From Patescibacteria group bacterium (GTDB lineage: Bacteria > Patescibacteriota > Patescibacteriia > UBA2591 > UBA4787), in NCBI GenBank assembly GCA_049971355.1, contig JBMFLE010000002.1:1-36074 (forward strand): a DNA stretch of 36,074 nucleotides, given 5' to 3'. A program made the translations under genes and the position numbers. This document shows positions 23,997-36,074 of the stretch, in pieces. The notes under the pieces are model-generated. The model was not told where the DNA came from, ran no database searches, and saw nothing but the letters and a program-made list of their open reading frames with translations. Positions within the stretch are counted from its first letter, which is position 1. Each line of letters opens with the position of its first letter.

Positions 23997-25520
23997 TTAA
24001 CGAGCATATTCCACGGCTCTTGTTTCGCGAATCACATTTACTTTTATTTCGCCGGGGTAATTTAATTCATCATGGATACGATTGGCTATTTGTTTAGCTA
24101 GATTTAAAGCCCCTAAATCATCGATTTTTTCCGGGATAACAAAAACTCTTAATTCCCGGCCAGCTTGAATTGCATAAGCTTTTTGAACGCCGTCAAAGGA
24201 AAGAGCAATTTTTTCAAGATTTTCCAATCTTTTAAGGTAATTTTCCAGACTGTCGCGTCTTGCTCCAGGACGGCTAGCAGAGATTGCTTCGGCGGCAGCA
24301 ACGATAAATGACTCAGGTGTTTCAAATGGATAATCCTCGTGGTGAGCTTCGATGGCTTTAATAATTTCTTCAGAAACGCCGTATTTTTGCAGAATTTTTC
24401 TTCCCAGCTCTACATGAGTACCTTCAACTTCATGATCAATAGCCTTGCCAATATCATGAAGTAATGCCGCTTTTTTAGCTACTTCAATATTAGCGCCTAA
24501 TTCGGCGGCCAGCATTTTTGCTAGATGAGCGGCTTCGATTGAGTGTTGGAGCACATTTTGGCCGTAACTTGTTCGATAATTTAATCTTCCCAAAAGATAA
24601 ATAATCTCTTTGGGTAAATCTAAAATCCCTAATTCATAAGCAGCATTTTCTCCGGCTTCTTTGATTTTTTCGTTTAATTCTTTTTGGGCTTCTTCAACTT
24701 TTTCTTCGATTTTGGCGGGTTGGATACGGCCGTCTTTAATGAGTTTTTCTAAAGCAATTCTCGCCAATTCTCTCCTTAATGGATCAAAAGAGGAGAGAGT
24801 GATTGTATCTGGTGATTCATCAATCAGAATATCTACTCCAGTCAGGCGTTCTAAAGTTCTAATATTTCTTCCTTCTCGGCCAATGATTTTTCCTTTGGTT
24901 TCTTCATCTGGAATGGAAAAAGAAGAAGTTGTCACTTCGCTGCTCACTGATCTACTCAATCGTTGAATGGCAGTTTCTAAAAGATTAAAAGCCTGTTTTT
25001 CTATTTCATCACGCTTTTCTTTTTCCATCCGCTTCAATAATTCAGTAATTTCTTGCCGATGGGTGTTTTCTATTTTTGAAAACAATTCTTTTTTAGCTTC
25101 TTCCTCGCCCAAACCAGCAATTCTTTCCAATTCTTTTTGAGCTTCTTGCCGGATTTCCTCAACTTTTTCTTTTATTTCTTTTACTTTTTTGATGTTTTCT
25201 TCTAAAGAACGATTTTTGGCTTCGGTTTCGCTGAGTTTCTGATTGAGCAACTCCTCGCGTCGATTAAGACGTTGTTCAAAAGCAGATAACTCTTTTTTTC
25301 TTTCTTTTTCTTCTTTTTGAGCTTCATCCAAAATAGCCGCAGCTTTATCTTTGGCGGCTAAAATAATTTCTTTAGCCTTAGTTTTGGCTTCTTCTAACTG
25401 ACTTTTAATTTTTTGTTCAGCGGAGGCAATTTCGCGCTTGATAATATTTTGTCGCGCGAGATAGCCGATAAAAATTCCTAAAATTAAGGTTGCTAAAGAT
25501 GCTAAAATAAGCGTCTCCAT
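23997..25520 (-). CDS. rny: Ribonuclease Y
   Basis: 507 aa. It has an N-terminal TM helix, a long coiled coil, a KH domain (GKIIGREGRNIRTLERLTGVDILI) and an HD domain (HSIEAAHLA...LLHDIGK). Confidence 0.93.
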   Translation of the reverse strand: METLILASLATLILGIFIGYLARQNIIKREIASAEQKIKSQLEEAKTKAKEIILAAKDKAAAILDEAQKEEKERKKELSAFEQRLNRREELLNQKLSETEAKNRSLEENIKKVKEIKEKVEEIRQEAQKELERIAGLGEEEAKKELFSKIENTHRQEITELLKRMEKEKRDEIEKQAFNLLETAIQRLSRSVSSEVTTSSFSIPDEETKGKIIGREGRNIRTLERLTGVDILIDESPDTITLSSFDPLRRELARIALEKLIKDGRIQPAKIEEKVEEAQKELNEKIKEAGENAAYELGILDLPKEIIYLLGRLNYRTSYGQNVLQHSIEAAHLAKMLAAELGANIEVAKKAALLHDIGKAIDHEVEGTHVELGRKILQKYGVSEEIIKAIEAHHEDYPFETPESFIVAAAEAISASRPGARRDSLENYLKRLENLEKIALSFDGVQKAYAIQAGRELRVFVIPEKIDDLGALNLAKQIANRIHDELNYPGEIKVNVIRETRAVEYAR

Positions 25521-25717
25521 ATGAGTGGATTTCGCCTTTCAAAAATTGCGATTTAATTACAAAAAAGGGTTTCACAAATTTTTTATAGCGAAATTAAAGA
25601 ATTTAATGACTTTAGATACGATTTAAAAAAGTACATTTTTATTATAGTTTGAATTTAAAGAAAATCAAGAGAGAAGAATAAAAAACGAGCCCCTTTGGGC
25701 CCGTATTGTGTATAAAA

Positions 25718-26107
25718 TTATAAAATTTTTACTTTTTTAATCTCAACTTTAAAATTATGCTCTTCCAGGTATTTTTTAAACATTTCTGCCGTTTCTAATA
25801 AAGACTCTTTACAATCTTCAAATATTTCATCTTCTGCTTCAGATGATAAATAATTAGAGAAAGCATCGCTGCATTCTATGGAGCAAACAGCTGGAAGATT
25901 TTCTGCTGTAATTTCAATGAAACCATCAATCCTTTTTATCGTTTTACTCATTAACGATTCTTTTATGGAGATATATGGTATAATCAGCAATTTTTCAACA
26001 TTCTTTTTTTTGGCATCATCAATCAATAATTGAATGGACGGGTATATTTTAAAAAATTTTGAAACAGTCAAAAATGCTCTTTTAACTAAATTTTTCATTT
26101 TTTTCAT
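25718..26107 (-). CDS. Hypothetical protein, paralog A of an orphan pair
   Basis: 129 aa with SD GGAGGGG 6 nt upstream. It aligns end to end at roughly 25% identity with 26217..26597 (KFFKIYPSIQLLIDDAKKKNVEKLLIIPYI versus ELFQFYPTLNLFFLEAQKKKLNNITIKPIM). Confidence 0.6.
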   Translation of the reverse strand: MKKMKNLVKRAFLTVSKFFKIYPSIQLLIDDAKKKNVEKLLIIPYISIKESLMSKTIKRIDGFIEITAENLPAVCSIECSDAFSNYLSSEAEDEIFEDCKESLLETAEMFKKYLEEHNFKVEIKKVKIL

Positions 26108-31487: not shown

Positions 31488-32295
31488 GGCTATTTTCGAT
31501 TTCATCATAAGTAAAAACCGGACCATTTAAGCAAACATAATTTTTGCCACACGTGCAATGTTGGCATTTGCCAATGCCGCACTGCATTTTTCTTTCCATA
31601 TTAACAAAAATTCGACGGTCGGAAATGCCCAGGGGTTTTAAAATTTTTTCTAAAGCATCCATCATTGGGCCCGGACCGCACATAGCAGCGACAGCATCTA
31701 ATTCATTAATTTTAATTTCTTTTACTAAATCCGAAACAAAACCAACGGGACCTTGCCAATTTGGGTGGGGTTTGTCAATTGTTAGAATAACGTTGATTGA
31801 TTTTTTCCAGTGTTCAATGCGATCTTTTAGTAATAATTCTTCAGGACTTTTAGCGCCATAAAGTAGATAGACATTACCAAAATGTTCCCGATGGACAATA
31901 ATATATTCAATTAAAGAGGCGATCGGTGGGATGCCGCAGCCACCAGTAACCAGAACAACGTCTTTTTCTTTCATAAAATCAATTGGAAAACCGTTGCCAT
32001 AAGGACCGCGAATTTCGATTAAATCTCCGGCTTGAAGAGTGTGCAAATAATTAGTGACATTGCCGGCTTTGCGAATAGCGAATTCAACATATTTTTTTTC
32101 ATAAGGAGAGGAGAGGGCGCCAAAAGGAGCCTCGCCGTAACCCGTTTCGCCAATTAAAAAGAATTGGCCAGGAATAAAAATCATTCCATCTTTGTTTTTG
32201 GGAAATTTATTTTCGAGTCGGAAAAGTTTAACGGTGGGCGATTCTTCTTTAACTTCTTTAATTTTAACTATTTTTGGGAGATAGAGATTTTTCAT
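31480..32295 (-). CDS. hydG: Hydrogenase gamma subunit (PyrK-like FAD/NAD(P)-binding, C-terminal 2Fe-2S)
   Basis: 271 aa. PGQFFLI (flavin), LVTGGCGIPP (NAD) and the C-terminal CGIGKCQHCTC...C cluster motif. Confidence 0.85.
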   Translation of the reverse strand: MKNLYLPKIVKIKEVKEESPTVKLFRLENKFPKNKDGMIFIPGQFFLIGETGYGEAPFGALSSPYEKKYVEFAIRKAGNVTNYLHTLQAGDLIEIRGPYGNGFPIDFMKEKDVVLVTGGCGIPPIASLIEYIIVHREHFGNVYLLYGAKSPEELLLKDRIEHWKKSINVILTIDKPHPNWQGPVGFVSDLVKEIKINELDAVAAMCGPGPMMDALEKILKPLGISDRRIFVNMERKMQCGIGKCQHCTCGKNYVCLNGPVFTYDEIENSHD

Positions 32296-32878
32296 AATCA
32301 GCTAAGATAGTTTTTAAAACTTTTAAAATATCAATTTGCGCTGGGCAATTTTTATGGCAACGACCGCAGCCAACGCAAAGAGATTTTCCCCATTCATAAT
32401 AACCGCGGACGAATTTATGATAAAACCAATTATAATAGCGTTGTTTTAATTCTTTTCGGAAATTATGACCGCCAGCAACAAGAGCAAAATCGTTTAAAGT
32501 ACAAGCGGTCCATTTACGAATCCGATAACTTTTGCCATCAAGCGTTTTATTATCTTCCCAGGAAAAACAGTAGCATAAAGGACACATAAAAGTACAAATG
32601 CCGCAACCCAAACAAGTTTTTGCCAATTCATCCCAAATCGGATGATTTTCTGACCATTCAACAGCTTTAGCTAATTTTTCGGGATCTAAGAGTAATTGCC
32701 GCATTTCTAAATGCCATTCGTCATTTTTTTGTGAAATTGGAGAGCTAATCTCAATATTTTCTACTTCTTCAAAAATTTTTTTGTATTTTTTCAACCATTT
32801 TTCTTCTTTTTTACTTTTGAGCCAGACGCGATAGGAATCGCTGTTAATTTTTTGAAAAACAATCTCGCCACCTGGCAA
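32264..32878 (-). CDS. hydB: Hydrogenase beta subunit (HydB/AsrA-like), C-terminal fragment with two 4Fe-4S motifs
   Basis: 204 aa from a TTG start. CLGCGICTFMCPLC and CVGCGRCHKNCP. It is in the same frame as 32951..33268, separated by 25 codons that contain two TAA. Confidence 0.75.
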   Translation of the reverse strand: MPGGEIVFQKINSDSYRVWLKSKKEEKWLKKYKKIFEEVENIEISSPISQKNDEWHLEMRQLLLDPEKLAKAVEWSENHPIWDELAKTCLGCGICTFMCPLCYCFSWEDNKTLDGKSYRIRKWTACTLNDFALVAGGHNFRKELKQRYYNWFYHKFVRGYYEWGKSLCVGCGRCHKNCPAQIDILKVLKTILADYEKSLSPKNS

Positions 32879-32950
32879 ACTATCGATAAGACCTTGTTAT
32901 CTCTTGTCTGTAGTATATGATGGTGAAAAGGGGCGTGCTTTAGTTAAGCT

Positions 32951-33268
32951 TTATGATTCTTCAATTAAACCAATAACAATACTTTGATTGCGGCGTTGAA
33001 AGTAAAAATAATCTTCAATCGGTTTCGCCATTATTTCATCCAGTTGATTTAAGGCCTCAAGTTCGTAAAAATTTAATCCAAAAAGCACCAATGGCTTTGG
33101 TTTTCCTGCCACCTTTATTTTATTTTTTCGTCTTTCAAAAATTTTTTCTTCAGGTGGAAGAAAATATTGTTTAAAAGGCAATAAATCATTCCGAACATCA
33201 AACACTTGGTATTTTTCCGATAGTTTTTCTAAAAATGTTTTAATATTTTGCTCTTTGATAACAAGCAT
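32951..33268 (-). CDS. hydB: Hydrogenase beta subunit (HydB/AsrA-like), N-terminal fragment
   Basis: 105 aa. ...FLEKLSEKYQVFDV...PFKQYFLPPEEKIF...LVLFGLNFYELEALNQLDEIM...DYFYFQRRNQSIVIG follows the N-terminal pattern of AsrA/HydB-type subunits. Confidence 0.7.
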   Translation of the reverse strand: MLVIKEQNIKTFLEKLSEKYQVFDVRNDLLPFKQYFLPPEEKIFERRKNKIKVAGKPKPLVLFGLNFYELEALNQLDEIMAKPIEDYFYFQRRNQSIVIGLIEES

Positions 33269-33306
33269 TATTTTTATTATACCGCGAAATAAAAATTAGA
33301 AAAAGA

Positions 33307-33564
33307 TTAGTGAATCGTTTCTTCTTTATCTTCGTAAAGCCATTTCTTGAAAGTTTCTTTCAGAAGTTCCGGATCTTTAATCAGTTCTTTTATTTCATCG
33401 GCTTTTTCTTCAACCAGCTGGCGGAAAAGCGGCGAATATCTTTCAATCCATTCAAATTTATCCATTCCCGATTCTTTAATTAAGTCTCTTTGCAATAACA
33501 AATCCCATCCTGTTTGTAAATAAGGATTGTCGATTTTATGCATTTCGGGCATAGAGTTATTCAT
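33307..33564 (-). CDS. Hypothetical acidic 85-aa protein upstream of the hydrogenase operon
   Basis: An ORF with no recognisable motif, on the same strand as the hydrogenase genes. Confidence 0.45.
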   Translation of the reverse strand: MNNSMPEMHKIDNPYLQTGWDLLLQRDLIKESGMDKFEWIERYSPLFRQLVEEKADEIKELIKDPELLKETFKKWLYEDKEETIH

Positions 33565-33604
33565 ACATTTTTATTATAACATTTTGGAGGCAAAATGTAT
33601 AGAC

Positions 33605-33633
33605 TTGACAAAATGGATATTGTTTGCTATAAT
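33605..33633 (+). promoter_or_regulatory. Consensus sigma70 promoter with extended -10
   Basis: TTGACA (33605-10), 17-nt spacer, TGc-TATAAT (33625-33). Every consensus position is matched. Confidence 0.75.
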
Positions 33634-33639
33634 AAAATC

Positions 33640-33934
33640 GTGTAAAGAATTTTGAGAAAAAACATTTCAATACTTTTAACGTTTATCGTTTTTTCGGAAT
33701 TCTCTTTGAGCGACAATTTTGCTCATTTAGATTTGTGGCAGAGCTATTTAAAAATTTAATAAGGGATATTTTTTAAAGAAACCTTCCAAACTATTCGTGA
33801 GCAGTATATTGAGCTGAAAAATATTATTCAGTTCATTATACTGCTCACGAAGTGAGCGGCCTCTCTTCTCTCGCCATAATCTCGAAAGGGAGTGGTTTAA
33901 GTAGAGAAGAGTAGTAAGGCCAAGGAGGTTTACC
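33640..33934 (+). promoter_or_regulatory. ~295-nt structured untranslated RNA (leader or independent ncRNA)
   Basis: No credible ORF. There is a 58-nt hairpin at 33794-33851 (a 15-bp and a 9-bp helix separated by a T/T mismatch; 8-nt loop). In a second domain, GGCC-T-CTCTTCTCT (33858-71) pairs with AGAGAAGAG...GGCC (33903-21), ending next to SD AAGGAGG (33922-28). Confidence 0.55.
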
Positions 33935-35320
33935 ATGGCCGAATTAAAAACTTTAAAAGATTATACGGAAAAAATTGTTCAGCTCGAGTCACAGTACAAA
34001 AAAGTTGAGGAACAGTTGAGAAAATTCGAAAACTTCGATGTGGTTGAAAATTTGGGAAATATTCTAATTGAAAAACGATTCCCCGCTAGCCTTCAAGAAG
34101 AAATTGTTCAATGGCAGCAAAAATATAAAGATAGTCGGAGAGAAAGTCGACTTGCGTTGCTTGAAAAGTGTCTGCAGGCTATGAAAAAACTGCCCGATGA
34201 TGAGAAAATTATTATCGGGTCTCGCCTTAAAAATCTTTCTATTTACAACGGATGTGGTGGTTTCGGGAGTTTCAAGCGTCCTACTACTTGTGGTGGTTGT
34301 CACGAGGGTGAAAGAGTTATAACGTTTCTAGAACTAGAAAAATGGCTGACATTCTGCGGTGATCGGCAATATGAAATTTCATCGGAAGATTTTAAAAAAG
34401 CTCAGGTAGAAGTTCTAAAAAAGATCCAAAAAAAATACCCTGCACTTTTAGAACAGAATGAGCAGAAAGAAGATTTGCAGAAACAACTTGAAAAGATCGA
34501 AAATCAGATTCGATGTTTGAAAGAGCAGAAAAAGATAATGGAGCAGTTGAATTTGCTCGATCTAACTCCTGTTCTTTCGATTCTTCCAGAATTTTGGGCA
34601 GTGGTTCAGGAAATTGATAATGAAATTGTAAAAATAGCTTATGATCTCGAGCATAGGGTAGTTGTTTTTCTTGTTTCCAGATGGTTCTATTATGGTTCCG
34701 GCGGTTCTGAATATGGTCACGATGTTATAGTGTTCAGGGATGGTCAAAGAGCAAAGACGTATTACAAATGGCGGGATGCTTATGATCAACATGCTGACAG
34801 ACCAGCTTATAATTTCAACGATGTGCGCATATCTAAAATTACCAAAGATCGGGTTGAAGTAGTGTTGATTAATTCCCATTATAATTTCTCTCTCAAGCAT
34901 ACATTCTCAGTAGCCGAGAGAGAAGATAATTCGACATCAATTTCTCTTGAAGAAAAGGAAGAGTTTAAGAGACATGTGGAAGCTGAAATTCAGAAGATTC
35001 TCAAAGCCGAAACTCGTAACGCCACTATGCCAAGTTATATTTTGGCTGGTTATCCTCTGAATATTCCCACTTACACGAATTCCGACATTCCTTATGTTCA
35101 GGCTCAGGTAATTGATAAGGCCATCGATTACAGAAAGAAAGTAGCAGTAGTGGTGGTTAAAAGTCAAATTGATTATTGTGCTGGAGAAGGTAGACAGTGG
35201 GGGTGGTATGTTTACAAAATTACCCCCCAAAAAACAGAGAGGGTTGATTCTAAAAACGCGTATGATGTTGAATTGAAGAGAGGTAAAAAGATCGTGTTGA
35301 AAGCTCAAGACTACGCATAA
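33935..35320 (+). CDS. Orphan 461-aa protein (coiled-coil N-terminus, Cys knuckle, beta-rich C-half)
   Basis: A long ORF with a strong SD and its own terminator. It has a C107-x11-C119-x2-C122-H123 cluster. No family motif recognised. The antisense ORFs 34064.., 34562.. and 34937.. are judged spurious. Confidence 0.7.
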   Translation: MAELKTLKDYTEKIVQLESQYKKVEEQLRKFENFDVVENLGNILIEKRFPASLQEEIVQWQQKYKDSRRESRLALLEKCLQAMKKLPDDEKIIIGSRLKNLSIYNGCGGFGSFKRPTTCGGCHEGERVITFLELEKWLTFCGDRQYEISSEDFKKAQVEVLKKIQKKYPALLEQNEQKEDLQKQLEKIENQIRCLKEQKKIMEQLNLLDLTPVLSILPEFWAVVQEIDNEIVKIAYDLEHRVVVFLVSRWFYYGSGGSEYGHDVIVFRDGQRAKTYYKWRDAYDQHADRPAYNFNDVRISKITKDRVEVVLINSHYNFSLKHTFSVAEREDNSTSISLEEKEEFKRHVEAEIQKILKAETRNATMPSYILAGYPLNIPTYTNSDIPYVQAQVIDKAIDYRKKVAVVVVKSQIDYCAGEGRQWGWYVYKITPQKTERVDSKNAYDVELKRGKKIVLKAQDYA

Positions 35321-35344
35321 TACTAATACGCATAAAAATAACAA

Positions 35345-35374
35345 CCCCCAACCTAAGTTGGGGGCTTTCTTTTA
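35345..35374 (+). terminator. Rho-independent terminator of the orphan gene
   Basis: CCCCCAAC-CTAA-GTTGGGGG followed by CTTTCTTTT. Confidence 0.8.
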
Positions 35375-35390
35375 TTAGATTTTTATATTA

Positions 35391-35418
35391 TTGACAAATT
35401 TTTAAAAAATTATATTAT
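35391..35418 (+). promoter_or_regulatory. Candidate promoter of the small membrane protein gene
   Basis: TTGACA (35391-96), 16-nt spacer, TATTAT (35413-18). SD AAGGAGG lies ahead of ATG 35450. Confidence 0.5.
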
Positions 35419-35449
35419 AAAATTAGATTCTTGAAAAAGGAGGATAAAA

Positions 35450-35731
35450 ATGCAACAGCTGATAAATTTATTATCATTTTTCCTATTGCCGATTATTTTA
35501 GTTTATGGTTTTGCCATTATTTTTGGCAAAACCAAGGAAGTAAATAGGGCATTGGGAAAAATGTTTAAGGCTATTTTTCAGTTTATAGTTGATGTTATTT
35601 GTTCAATAGTAACATTTGTTTTTAGAAAATTGAAAGAACTTCACCGGTATTGCTATGAACGGTGGCCAGCGGTGACTGTTGTCGTAGAAGTTGTTATTTT
35701 AGTGGTGATTATAATTTTAATTTTGAGCTAA
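35450..35731 (+). CDS. Small hydrophobic membrane protein (93 aa, 3 predicted TM helices)
   Basis: Hydrophobic helices at LINLLSFFLLPIILVYGFAIIF, IFQFIVDVICSIVTFVF and VTVVVEVVILVVIIILIL. It has its own promoter, SD and terminator. Confidence 0.6.
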   Translation: MQQLINLLSFFLLPIILVYGFAIIFGKTKEVNRALGKMFKAIFQFIVDVICSIVTFVFRKLKELHRYCYERWPAVTVVVEVVILVVIIILILS

Positions 35732-35732
35732 A

Positions 35733-35753
35733 GGCGGCGTAGCCGCCTTTTTT
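35733..35753 (+). terminator. Rho-independent terminator
   Basis: GGCGGC-GTA-GCCGCC followed by TTTTTTATTT. Confidence 0.8.
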
Positions 35754-35764
35754 ATTTAATTTTA

Positions 35765-35797
35765 GGCCAACGGATGTCCAAAGGATATCCGTTGGCC
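35765..35797. other. 15-bp hairpin with no T-run
   Basis: GGCCAACGGATGTCC-AAA-GGATATCCGTTGGCC. The arms are complementary apart from one G:T (G:U in RNA) position. Confidence 0.6.
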
Positions 35798-35810
35798 TAC
35801 TAAATCCCAA

Positions 35811-35852
35811 ATTCTAACTTCTAAATTCTACTTTCTAAATTATAGATTCTAA
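35811..35852. repeat. Cluster of five TTCTA(A) hexamer repeats
   Basis: aTTCTAAc TTCTAAa TTCTAct TTCTAAattataga TTCTAAt, immediately upstream of the GC-rich element. Confidence 0.6.
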
Positions 35853-36047
35853 TGTGCCCAGGGTGGGACTCGCCTACAAGTAATCTGCCTGACGCCTGCC
35901 TACCGGCAGGCAGGGCAGATTCTCGCAGGCCGCCCCTCGCGGTGCTCGCCTTTCGCTTCGCTCAAACTCGCCCATCGCTGCGGGCTTCGAATCCTCCTCG
36001 CAAGCAAAGCAGTTTGCTTGCTCGAGGTCACTCTCGCTTTGCTCGAG
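35853..36047. other. GC-rich, hairpin-dense element (structured RNA or tRNA-derived element), identity unresolved
   Basis: I counted 79 G+C in the 120 nt 35881-36000, against a strongly AT-rich background. It contains nested inverted repeats: AATCTGCC/GGCAGATT enclosing GCCTGCC-GGTA-GGCAGGC (minus-strand reading), GCAAGCAAA-gcag-TTTGCTTGC, and two CTCGAG palindromes. Confidence 0.5.
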
Positions 36048-36074
36048 TGCCCTCGGGAGGATTCGAACCCCCAA
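36048..36074 (-). tRNA. Possible 3' portion of a tRNA running off the window edge
   Basis: The minus strand reads GGGGG-TTCGAAT-CCTCC (T-arm with a canonical T-loop), then CGAGGGC (acceptor 3' strand), then A. The 5' two-thirds would lie beyond the window. Caveat: an inverted near-copy of this motif lies at 35983-35998. Confidence 0.45.

Follow-up and report, generated by a model that had tools for sequence, protein, structure and literature searches.

A lineage-specific cassette with a consensus promoter, a hairpin-rich leader and a gene of an uncharacterised DPANN/CPR protein family in a Patescibacteria group bacterium

Near the 3' end of a 36,074-nucleotide (nt) stretch of contig JBMFLE010000002.1 from a Patescibacteria group bacterium (the whole stretch is called the window hereafter), a consensus promoter is followed by a long non-coding leader and by an open reading frame (ORF) for a protein of 461 amino acids (aa). 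The segment of about 1.8 kb that holds them, ~33590-35385 with approximate borders, is a lineage-specific promoter-leader-gene-terminator cassette, and the 461-aa protein is, as judged from its sequence, a divergent member of an uncurated and uncharacterised family of DPANN archaea and the candidate phyla radiation (CPR). The gene was probably acquired horizontally, and the leader is unlikely to be an RNA partner in its own right for the protein. The whole package, namely the cassette, a leader acting in cis and no RNA-protein module, is given a probability of about 0.6, most of that weight being carried by its comparative parts, and the specific cis mechanism of the leader, taken alone, is put forward tentatively. 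A first-pass annotation of this DNA had proposed a candidate RNA-plus-effector module composed of the structured RNA, the 461-aa protein and a small membrane protein encoded downstream.

The comparative evidence comes from syntenic contigs of relatives, which were fetched by way of hydB, the gene of the sulfhydrogenase beta subunit; the window from 33200 to 36074 was used as the blastn query against all loci (fetched loci are cited below by L numbers and proteins by P numbers). Homology to the syntenic relatives covers 33200-33540, 35474-35660 and the sequence from 35833 onward, and the stretch between 33540 and 35474 has no blastn match in the syntenic loci. Five contigs from two clades, L017-L019 (hydB 83% identical) and L020-L021 (hydB 74%), share the order of an 85-aa gene, about 120 nt, a divergent membrane gene of 92-95 aa and tRNA-Leu, with neither the leader nor the 461-aa gene. 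A third clade, L022-L025, is without the membrane gene as well, and there the tRNA gene comes directly after the 85-aa gene. Because these three related clades are without the promoter (P1), the leader, the ORF and the terminator, ~33590-35385 is read as a cassette, and parsimony favours its gain in this lineage. Two candidate traces of the event were tried and rejected: a duplication of P1 and of the downstream promoter P2 as an insertion scar, which 1423 of 2000 shuffles align as well, and the string GGAGGCAAAATG (33591-33602) as a relic of the Shine-Dalgarno (SD) sequence and start of the membrane gene, which aligns with L020 no better than chance (451 of 500 shuffles). No recombinase, transposase or integrase was found at the cassette.

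The genes on both sides are resident. The 85-aa gene on the left, which heads the side of the sulfhydrogenase (group 3b NiFe) operon, shares 78% identity with the L020 copy and lies directly upstream of hydB in all syntenic relatives. The 93-aa protein on the right is 58% and 55% identical to the products of the 92- and 95-aa genes that adjoin the 85-aa gene in L020 and L018, and since its orthologue occupies this place in relatives where leader and 461-aa gene are both missing, the membrane gene is resident and independent of the cassette. Its promoter P2 aligns with the membrane-gene promoter of the relatives, which P1 does not do convincingly. The first-pass annotation had read this gene as one for a protein with three transmembrane helices and with an independent promoter and terminator, and the description is accurate: there are three hydrophobic segments (~residues 4-26, 38-59 and 72-93), P2 matches the consensus at 11 of 12 positions, and a terminator is predicted at 35730-35750. 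Its inclusion in a module is not, given that relatives carry the gene without the other two components.

The window contains genes for tmRNA (transfer-messenger RNA), tRNA-His, RNase Y, UvrD, ComM and a VirB4/TraG-like ATPase, together with a four-gene NiFe sulfhydrogenase-type operon, and the closest named hydB homologues (74% identity) are annotated 'Patescibacteria group bacterium'. P1, which had been singled out as the best promoter match in the window, deserves this rank: it is the sole site that agrees with the consensus at 12 of 12 positions in the 36-kb window with both strands counted, while 0.025 such sites are expected by chance in simulations of the window with its dinucleotide frequencies (first-order Markov). 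Five sites match at 11 of 12 positions, among them those before the 93-aa gene, before tRNA-His and about 200 nt upstream of the RNase Y gene. Consensus sigma-70 promoters are seemingly used in this genome, because such 11/12 sites stand before known genes. At the RNase Y gene (23997-25520, minus strand), the promoter match lies at the far side of an upstream region of some 200 nt (25521-25746, minus strand); a long 5' leader after a near-consensus promoter is thus not confined to the 461-aa gene here. At its other end the cassette closes with a strong intrinsic terminator of its own, as the first reading had it, and the hairpin at 35345-35364 also scores as a terminator on the minus strand and looks bidirectional. 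The coordinates are collected in Table 1.

Table 1. Features of the cassette and of its resident flanks, in window coordinates
Feature	Position	Strand	Details
Resident 85-aa gene, left flank	33307..33564	-	Heads the sulfhydrogenase operon side; outside the cassette
Promoter P1	33605..33633	+	TTGACA-17-TGcTATAAT; sigma-70 consensus with extended -10; 12/12
Non-coding 5' leader, ~294 nt	33640..33934	+	Transcription start inferred from the -10 element
Hairpin 1	33794..33851	+	58-nt near-perfect inverted repeat with 29-nt arms; -37.8 kcal/mol, z = -10.6
Hairpin 2	33858..33921	+	64-nt branched stem-loop (GGCCUCUCUUCUCU ... AGAGAAGAG ... GGCC); -28.3 kcal/mol, z = -3.84
Small SD/AUG hairpin	33918..33940	+	Predicted in folds of 33855-33960 and of the full leader
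461-aa ORF	33935..35320	+	AAGGAGG 6 nt before the ATG
Cassette intrinsic terminator	35345..35374	+	Hairpin 35345-35364; CCCCCAACCTAAGTTGGGGG plus T-rich tail; strong
Promoter P2 (93-aa gene)	35391..35418	+	11/12 match
Resident 93-aa gene, three transmembrane segments	35450..35731	+	In unit 35391..35750; outside the cassette
93-aa gene terminator	35730..35750	+	Terminator prediction

From the predicted transcription start near 33640 up to the ATG at 33935, no ORF has a ribosome-binding site and no translated frame matches the related loci, so that the claim of about 295 nt without a credible ORF before the first gene stands. When the leader is folded as a 306-nt stretch, its minimum free energy is -98.4 kcal/mol as compared with -64.2 +/- 4.3 kcal/mol for shuffled sequences (z = -7.95), and none of 100 shuffles is as stable. 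A scan of the whole window with a sliding frame of 150 nt places 33701-33850 at the most negative value (z = -7.75), tied with 35701-35850, where a terminator, an inverted repeat and a tandem repeat combine to produce the tie; 33801-33950 ranks fourth (z = -5.83), and the tRNA-His stretch reaches just -4.2. The leader had been described as folding into two large domains, of which the structure is confirmed and the two domains are not: the signal is concentrated in the 3' half and comes almost wholly from hairpins 1 and 2, and the first 150 nt are weakly structured (z = -2.55 and -0.07).

In hairpin 1, 24 of 25 stem positions are paired, as a perfect 15-bp stem, a T.T mismatch and a 9-bp stem with one G.U pair. 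The antisense strand of hairpin 2 reaches -22.2 kcal/mol at best, against -28.3 for the sense strand, and for the leader as a whole the two strands differ in the same direction (-98.4 kcal/mol sense, -82.3 antisense), the sense strand being more stable by 16 kcal/mol. This bias is mild evidence that the RNA itself, beyond a DNA palindrome, matters in the leader. The predicted small hairpin leaves the SD sequence AAGGAGG (33922-33928) looped out and pairs the AUG (33935-33937), by means of a 5-bp stem and two inner pairs. The patterns TTCGTGAGCAGTATA-N28-TATACTGCTCACGAA and GGCCTCTCTTCTCTCGCC could serve as signatures of the leader.

Searches for relatives of this RNA were negative throughout. 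Rfam at gathering thresholds returns only tmRNA and tRNA-His in the window and no family for the leader, and at E <= 10 the leader draws just far-below-threshold noise of miRNA-precursor or snoRNA shape from the long hairpin; the covariance-model scan that the first reading had recommended therefore matched no family. By blastn, a homologue of the leader is absent from all 25 fetched loci, and further copies of the hairpin or of the leader were found neither in the window nor in the 25 loci or viral contigs. There are no tandem repeats in 33500-35400, and no terminator with a U-tract is predicted between the leader and the ORF. A decayed upstream gene inside the leader was considered and rejected, as six-frame blastx against all neighbour ORFs matched nothing. 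A 35-aa ORF beginning with TTG (33652-33759) and an antisense 62-aa ORF (33748-33936) are treated as chance occurrences, since they have neither a ribosome-binding site nor homologues.

The 461-aa protein has a helical, coiled-coil N-terminal half, a C-x11-C-x2-CH zinc knuckle (residues 107-123) and two beta-rich C-terminal domains, an architecture proposed in outline in the first reading and borne out by the sequence and by two AlphaFold2 models, whose confidence (predicted local distance difference test, pLDDT) is 79.8 for the model of the full length and 83.7 for that of the C-terminal half. Remote-homology and structure searches, which had likewise been recommended, were run and gave no curated relative. 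There is no match in Pfam (also for 53 family members), NCBIfam, PADLOC, PHROGs or the PDB, the last by sequence and profile, and Foldseek searches of both AlphaFold2 models against the PDB and BFVD returned no match at E <= 0.001. Foldseek matches to PUR-repeat and XLF-like structures were rejected at TM-scores < 0.3, as were a sub-threshold SGNH match (22 bits, cut-off 27) and coiled-coil noise; the PADLOC match to LmuB is of a weak coiled-coil type (E = 0.0039, 14.5 bits) and is not convincing. Pfam detects no reverse transcriptase (RT; RVT), RuvC, HNH or toxin domain in the 461-aa protein or in the 53 members.

The protein had also been called an orphan, and this holds for curated families and not beyond them. 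A word-indexed search of 5.8 billion proteins yielded five homologues at 30-38% identity, and an exhaustive HMMER search of 1.84 billion representatives yielded 133 clusters at E <= 1e-3, 26 of them at E <= 1e-30, with phmmer E-values to the family members (P0002-P0136) starting from 1e-72; a profile built on the 53-member alignment found at least five proteins in the 5.8-billion-protein set. The 461-aa protein aligns with the family end to end, with a poorly aligned N-terminal part of ~90 residues, and it keeps all 73 of the 73 columns that are invariant among the six closest members. These columns include the knuckle C107-x11-C119-x2-C122-H123 and the motifs GDR-Y-I, FRDG, WRD-x6-D and QID-x7-Q-x2-W-x2-Y; the family can be recognised by the string CGGFG-x5-PTTCGGCH ... 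WRD ... QID, the knuckle being also written C-GGFG-x5-PTTC-GG-CH. Among the 53 members, R280, D281, D288, Y387, Q411, I412, D413, Q421 and Y427 are conserved at 90% or more, and all are kept here. Two family members carry an organism name, and both are DPANN archaea (metagenome-assembled genomes, MAGs, of a Woesearchaeota and a Pacearchaeota), of which the Woesearchaeota MAG alone was returned by a scan of 185,579 species-representative genomes. Because the only organism-named members are DPANN archaea, a transfer of the gene from an archaeon to a CPR bacterium is plausible. Nothing specific on the family was found in the literature.

Elsewhere the family genes are packed into operons. At the loci with upstream sequence they begin ~20-50 nt after the preceding gene, or after a short or unstructured spacer, and the upstream regions of three of them show no unusual structure (z = +0.56, -0.41 and -1.42); a long structured leader was found at no other family locus examined. 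The upstream region is therefore not conserved in homologous loci, an outcome that the first reading itself had named as a refutation, and the claim of an RNA-plus-effector module fails by it: the leader has no Rfam match, no repeats and no counterpart in related loci, and the other family genes with upstream sequence do without such an RNA. Nor do homologues carry a structured RNA upstream, as had been asked of a true module, at the family loci examined, and in the syntenic relatives the transmembrane gene occurs with neither of the other two components.

What recurs next to the family is a protein of 180-250 aa with a divergent receiver-like N-terminus, encoded in L004, L005, L008, L009 and L010. 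Against Pfam Response_reg these neighbours score 17-27 bits, below the cut-off of 30.2, and in one family member, P0005, a receiver-like domain is fused at the N-terminus. Since the family sits in operons with receiver-like proteins and is fused to one once, the gene neighbourhood suggests that it is the partner or output of an atypical receiver, with a signalling-linked function. A hidden Markov model built from the five neighbours matches no ORF of at least 60 aa in the window, where the gene stands by itself, supplied with a promoter, a leader and a terminator of its own. As a separate observation, a probably archaeal contig (L001:1207-3421, also L002 and L003) carries, upstream of its family gene, small unannotated genes (38 aa, about 90-110 aa and about 100-160 aa) that form two paralogous sets in tandem and have no Pfam match, and one of these small genes has a relative that adjoins the family gene in L010 (L010:6221-7906).

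The reading that accounts best for these data is that the cassette would be a self-contained transcription unit, set between two resident divergent genes at a variable spot beside a tRNA gene. P1 would yield one mRNA with a 5' untranslated region (UTR) of ~294 nt that contains two very stable hairpins and the SD/AUG hairpin. Such a leader may act in cis, on the stability, half-life or processing of the mRNA and on translation initiation. The 24-bp duplex of hairpin 1 would be long enough to serve as a substrate for a double-strand-specific RNase, and the SD/AUG stem may dampen translation in a gene whose expression would otherwise be very strong.

More specific control, by which a leader of a new cis-regulatory kind (riboswitch, attenuator or protein-bound RNA) would switch the 461-aa gene in response to a signal, is unlikely. 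The length of the non-coding leader behind a perfect promoter would suit it, as would the enclosure of the SD sequence and the AUG in a small hairpin, and another control input would make sense for a copy without a receiver-like partner. The 5' half offers a weak terminator-like hairpin with a U-rich tail (33707-33725), and the 3' arm of hairpin 1 is able to pair with the downstream GUGAGCGG (33841-33859). This alternative, however, amounts to -11.4 kcal/mol and is no competitor for hairpin 1 at -37.8. As for an expression platform, the SD/AUG stem and this weak hairpin are predicted, with energies that hardly point to a balanced switch. Moreover, the leader lacks the multi-helix junction or conserved-loop architecture typical of an aptamer, its 5' half is scarcely above shuffles in structure, Rfam draws nothing but hairpin-shaped noise even at E <= 10, and the fetched loci hold no homologous leader in which conservation could be seen. 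Of the earlier suggestion of a riboswitch- or attenuator-controlled gene, control through a structured 5' leader survives as the most economical reading, with any regulation by it putative. To a similar degree it is improbable that the hairpins are features or relics at the DNA level, such as a recombination or mobile-element end or a template-switch palindrome, transcribed as passengers with no function as RNA. Hairpin 1 is indeed a near-perfect inverted repeat without a spacer (z = -10.6 sense, -8.9 antisense) within a segment missing from relatives, and the locus is a hotspot in which the membrane gene and a GC-rich element next to the tRNA gene are each present or absent between clades or contigs. 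Nevertheless, the palindrome lies ~200 nt inside the inserted segment and away from its border, no matching repeat stands at the opposite border, there is no transposase or integrase and no second copy in the window, the 25 loci or viral contigs, and both the G.U pair and hairpin 2 speak for the sense RNA strand.

The proposal that the leader is a separate small RNA and serves the 461-aa protein as guide, scaffold, antitoxin or template is highly improbable. The order of promoter, structured RNA and zinc-knuckle protein resembles on paper that of IscB with its omega RNA or of a retron, the fold has no known analogue, and the conserved acidic and polar residues R280, D281, D288, Q411, D413 and Q421 are a candidate active site. 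On the other hand, the other family genes with upstream sequence have no structured RNA before them, the leader is not separated from the ORF by a terminator, it has no tandem repeats, and Rfam matches it to neither HEARO nor retron RNA; RT, RuvC, HNH and toxin domains are missing, the weak LmuB match (E = 0.0039) is the sole one in PADLOC, and the membrane gene belongs to a unit of its own outside the cassette. The defence, type III toxin-antitoxin or RNA-templated roles first imagined for the locus accordingly lose their footing, there being no RT, nuclease or defence-family signature. A bolder version, also decidedly unlikely, would be that a CPR bacterium took up a signalling-linked gene with a new fold from a DPANN archaeon and replaced its receiver partner by an undescribed structured leader, which would be a cis-regulatory RNA of a new class or else, after processing, would bind to the zinc-knuckle protein.

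Several points weigh against the preferred reading of an acquired cassette with a cis-acting leader. The transcription start, the status of the leader as a 5' UTR and any processing of it are all inferred, and the leader is a single sequence (n = 1), in which selection on structure has no second copy for comparison. The 58-nt near-perfect palindrome looks evolutionarily young, or is possibly a DNA-level feature. Loss of the cassette in three related clades would explain its distribution in place of gain, although less parsimoniously, and the closest relative, L016 (hydB 98% identical over a 204-aa query), is uninformative because its contig stops inside the 85-aa gene. Scars of insertion, in the form of a target duplication or terminal repeats, were not found at the cassette, and the archaeal origin rests on just two organism-named members.

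Other elements were observed beside the cassette. Just past the terminator of the membrane gene lies a 17-bp inverted repeat (TAGGCCAACGGATGTCC / GGATATCCGTTGGCCTA, 35763-35799), followed by 7.6 copies of a CTAAATT tandem repeat (35800-35852) and then by a GC-rich element of ~190 nt (35858-36047, sense on the minus strand). This element stands directly 3' of the tRNA gene in a genome of 34% GC and ends in a second copy of the tRNA-Leu 3' end (ACTTGTAG-CGAGTCCCACCCTGGGCAC). It is found also at L018:8684-8872, and L017:1-170 is an empty site; as L017 and L018 share an identical HydB protein (P0138) and differ in the element, it is a presence/absence insertion. The copies of the window and of L018 are 72% identical, and 9 of 54 predicted base pairs are changed on both sides with none broken. 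The element has no Rfam match and looks like a small structured RNA element that is mobile or linked to tRNA, to go by these sequence comparisons. The hydB gene of the window (32264-33268, minus strand) is interrupted at about 32883-32955, where ~73 nt with two in-frame stops replace 4 nt of the 312-aa gene that relatives have intact (P0137 at 98% identity, P0138). No other copy of the inserted sequence occurs in the window and none in the 25 loci, and the interrupted gene could be a pseudogene, a split gene, the site of a small insertion or an assembly artefact.

As it stands, the object is an ordinary one, a strongly promoted accessory gene of unknown function whose 5' UTR is rich in hairpins, and the small membrane gene and the idea of an RNA-plus-effector pair are taken out of consideration. 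A clean presence/absence cassette in a CPR genome, with DPANN archaea as its only named relatives, is nonetheless a candidate for gene flow between two lineages of ultra-small episymbionts. Additionally, a family of 133 clusters that has no curated annotation or structural analogue and shows a recurrent link to receiver-like proteins may merit a Pfam entry and a structure.

Compared with known systems, the cassette shares with type III toxin-antitoxin loci (ToxIN or an AbiE-like layout) a non-coding RNA before a protein gene under one promoter, but it has no tandem RNA repeats, no terminator before the ORF and no convincing PADLOC match. Its likeness to OMEGA systems (IscB with omega or HEARO RNA) and to retrons (msr-msd with an RT) is one of DNA order only, an RNA of ~200-300 nt and then a protein of 400-500 aa. 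Unlike OMEGA, the locus has no RuvC or HNH domain, no HEARO match and no IS200/IS605-type ends or other copies, and coiled-coil and beta domains are predicted in their stead; unlike retrons, it has no RT domain in the 461-aa protein or in the 53 members and no retron RNA in Rfam. It differs from both in that homologues of the 461-aa protein exist without the RNA. It is also set apart from the other DPANN/CPR members of its own family, by its bacterial host and by a solitary gene that has a promoter, leader and terminator to itself instead of a place in a receiver operon. The rnc and pnp leaders of Escherichia coli and the lambda N leader are examples of long structured 5' UTRs that undergo RNase III processing or protect their mRNA. 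There is no sequence or family relationship to these leaders, cleavage would here be hypothetical, and of the enzymes RNase III and RNase Y the latter alone is seen in the window. By analogy, the cassette nevertheless resembles them in its predicted layout, with a strong promoter, a leader of a few hundred nt, a duplex of more than 20 bp just before the ribosome-binding site, and an SD/AUG region that would be partly paired.

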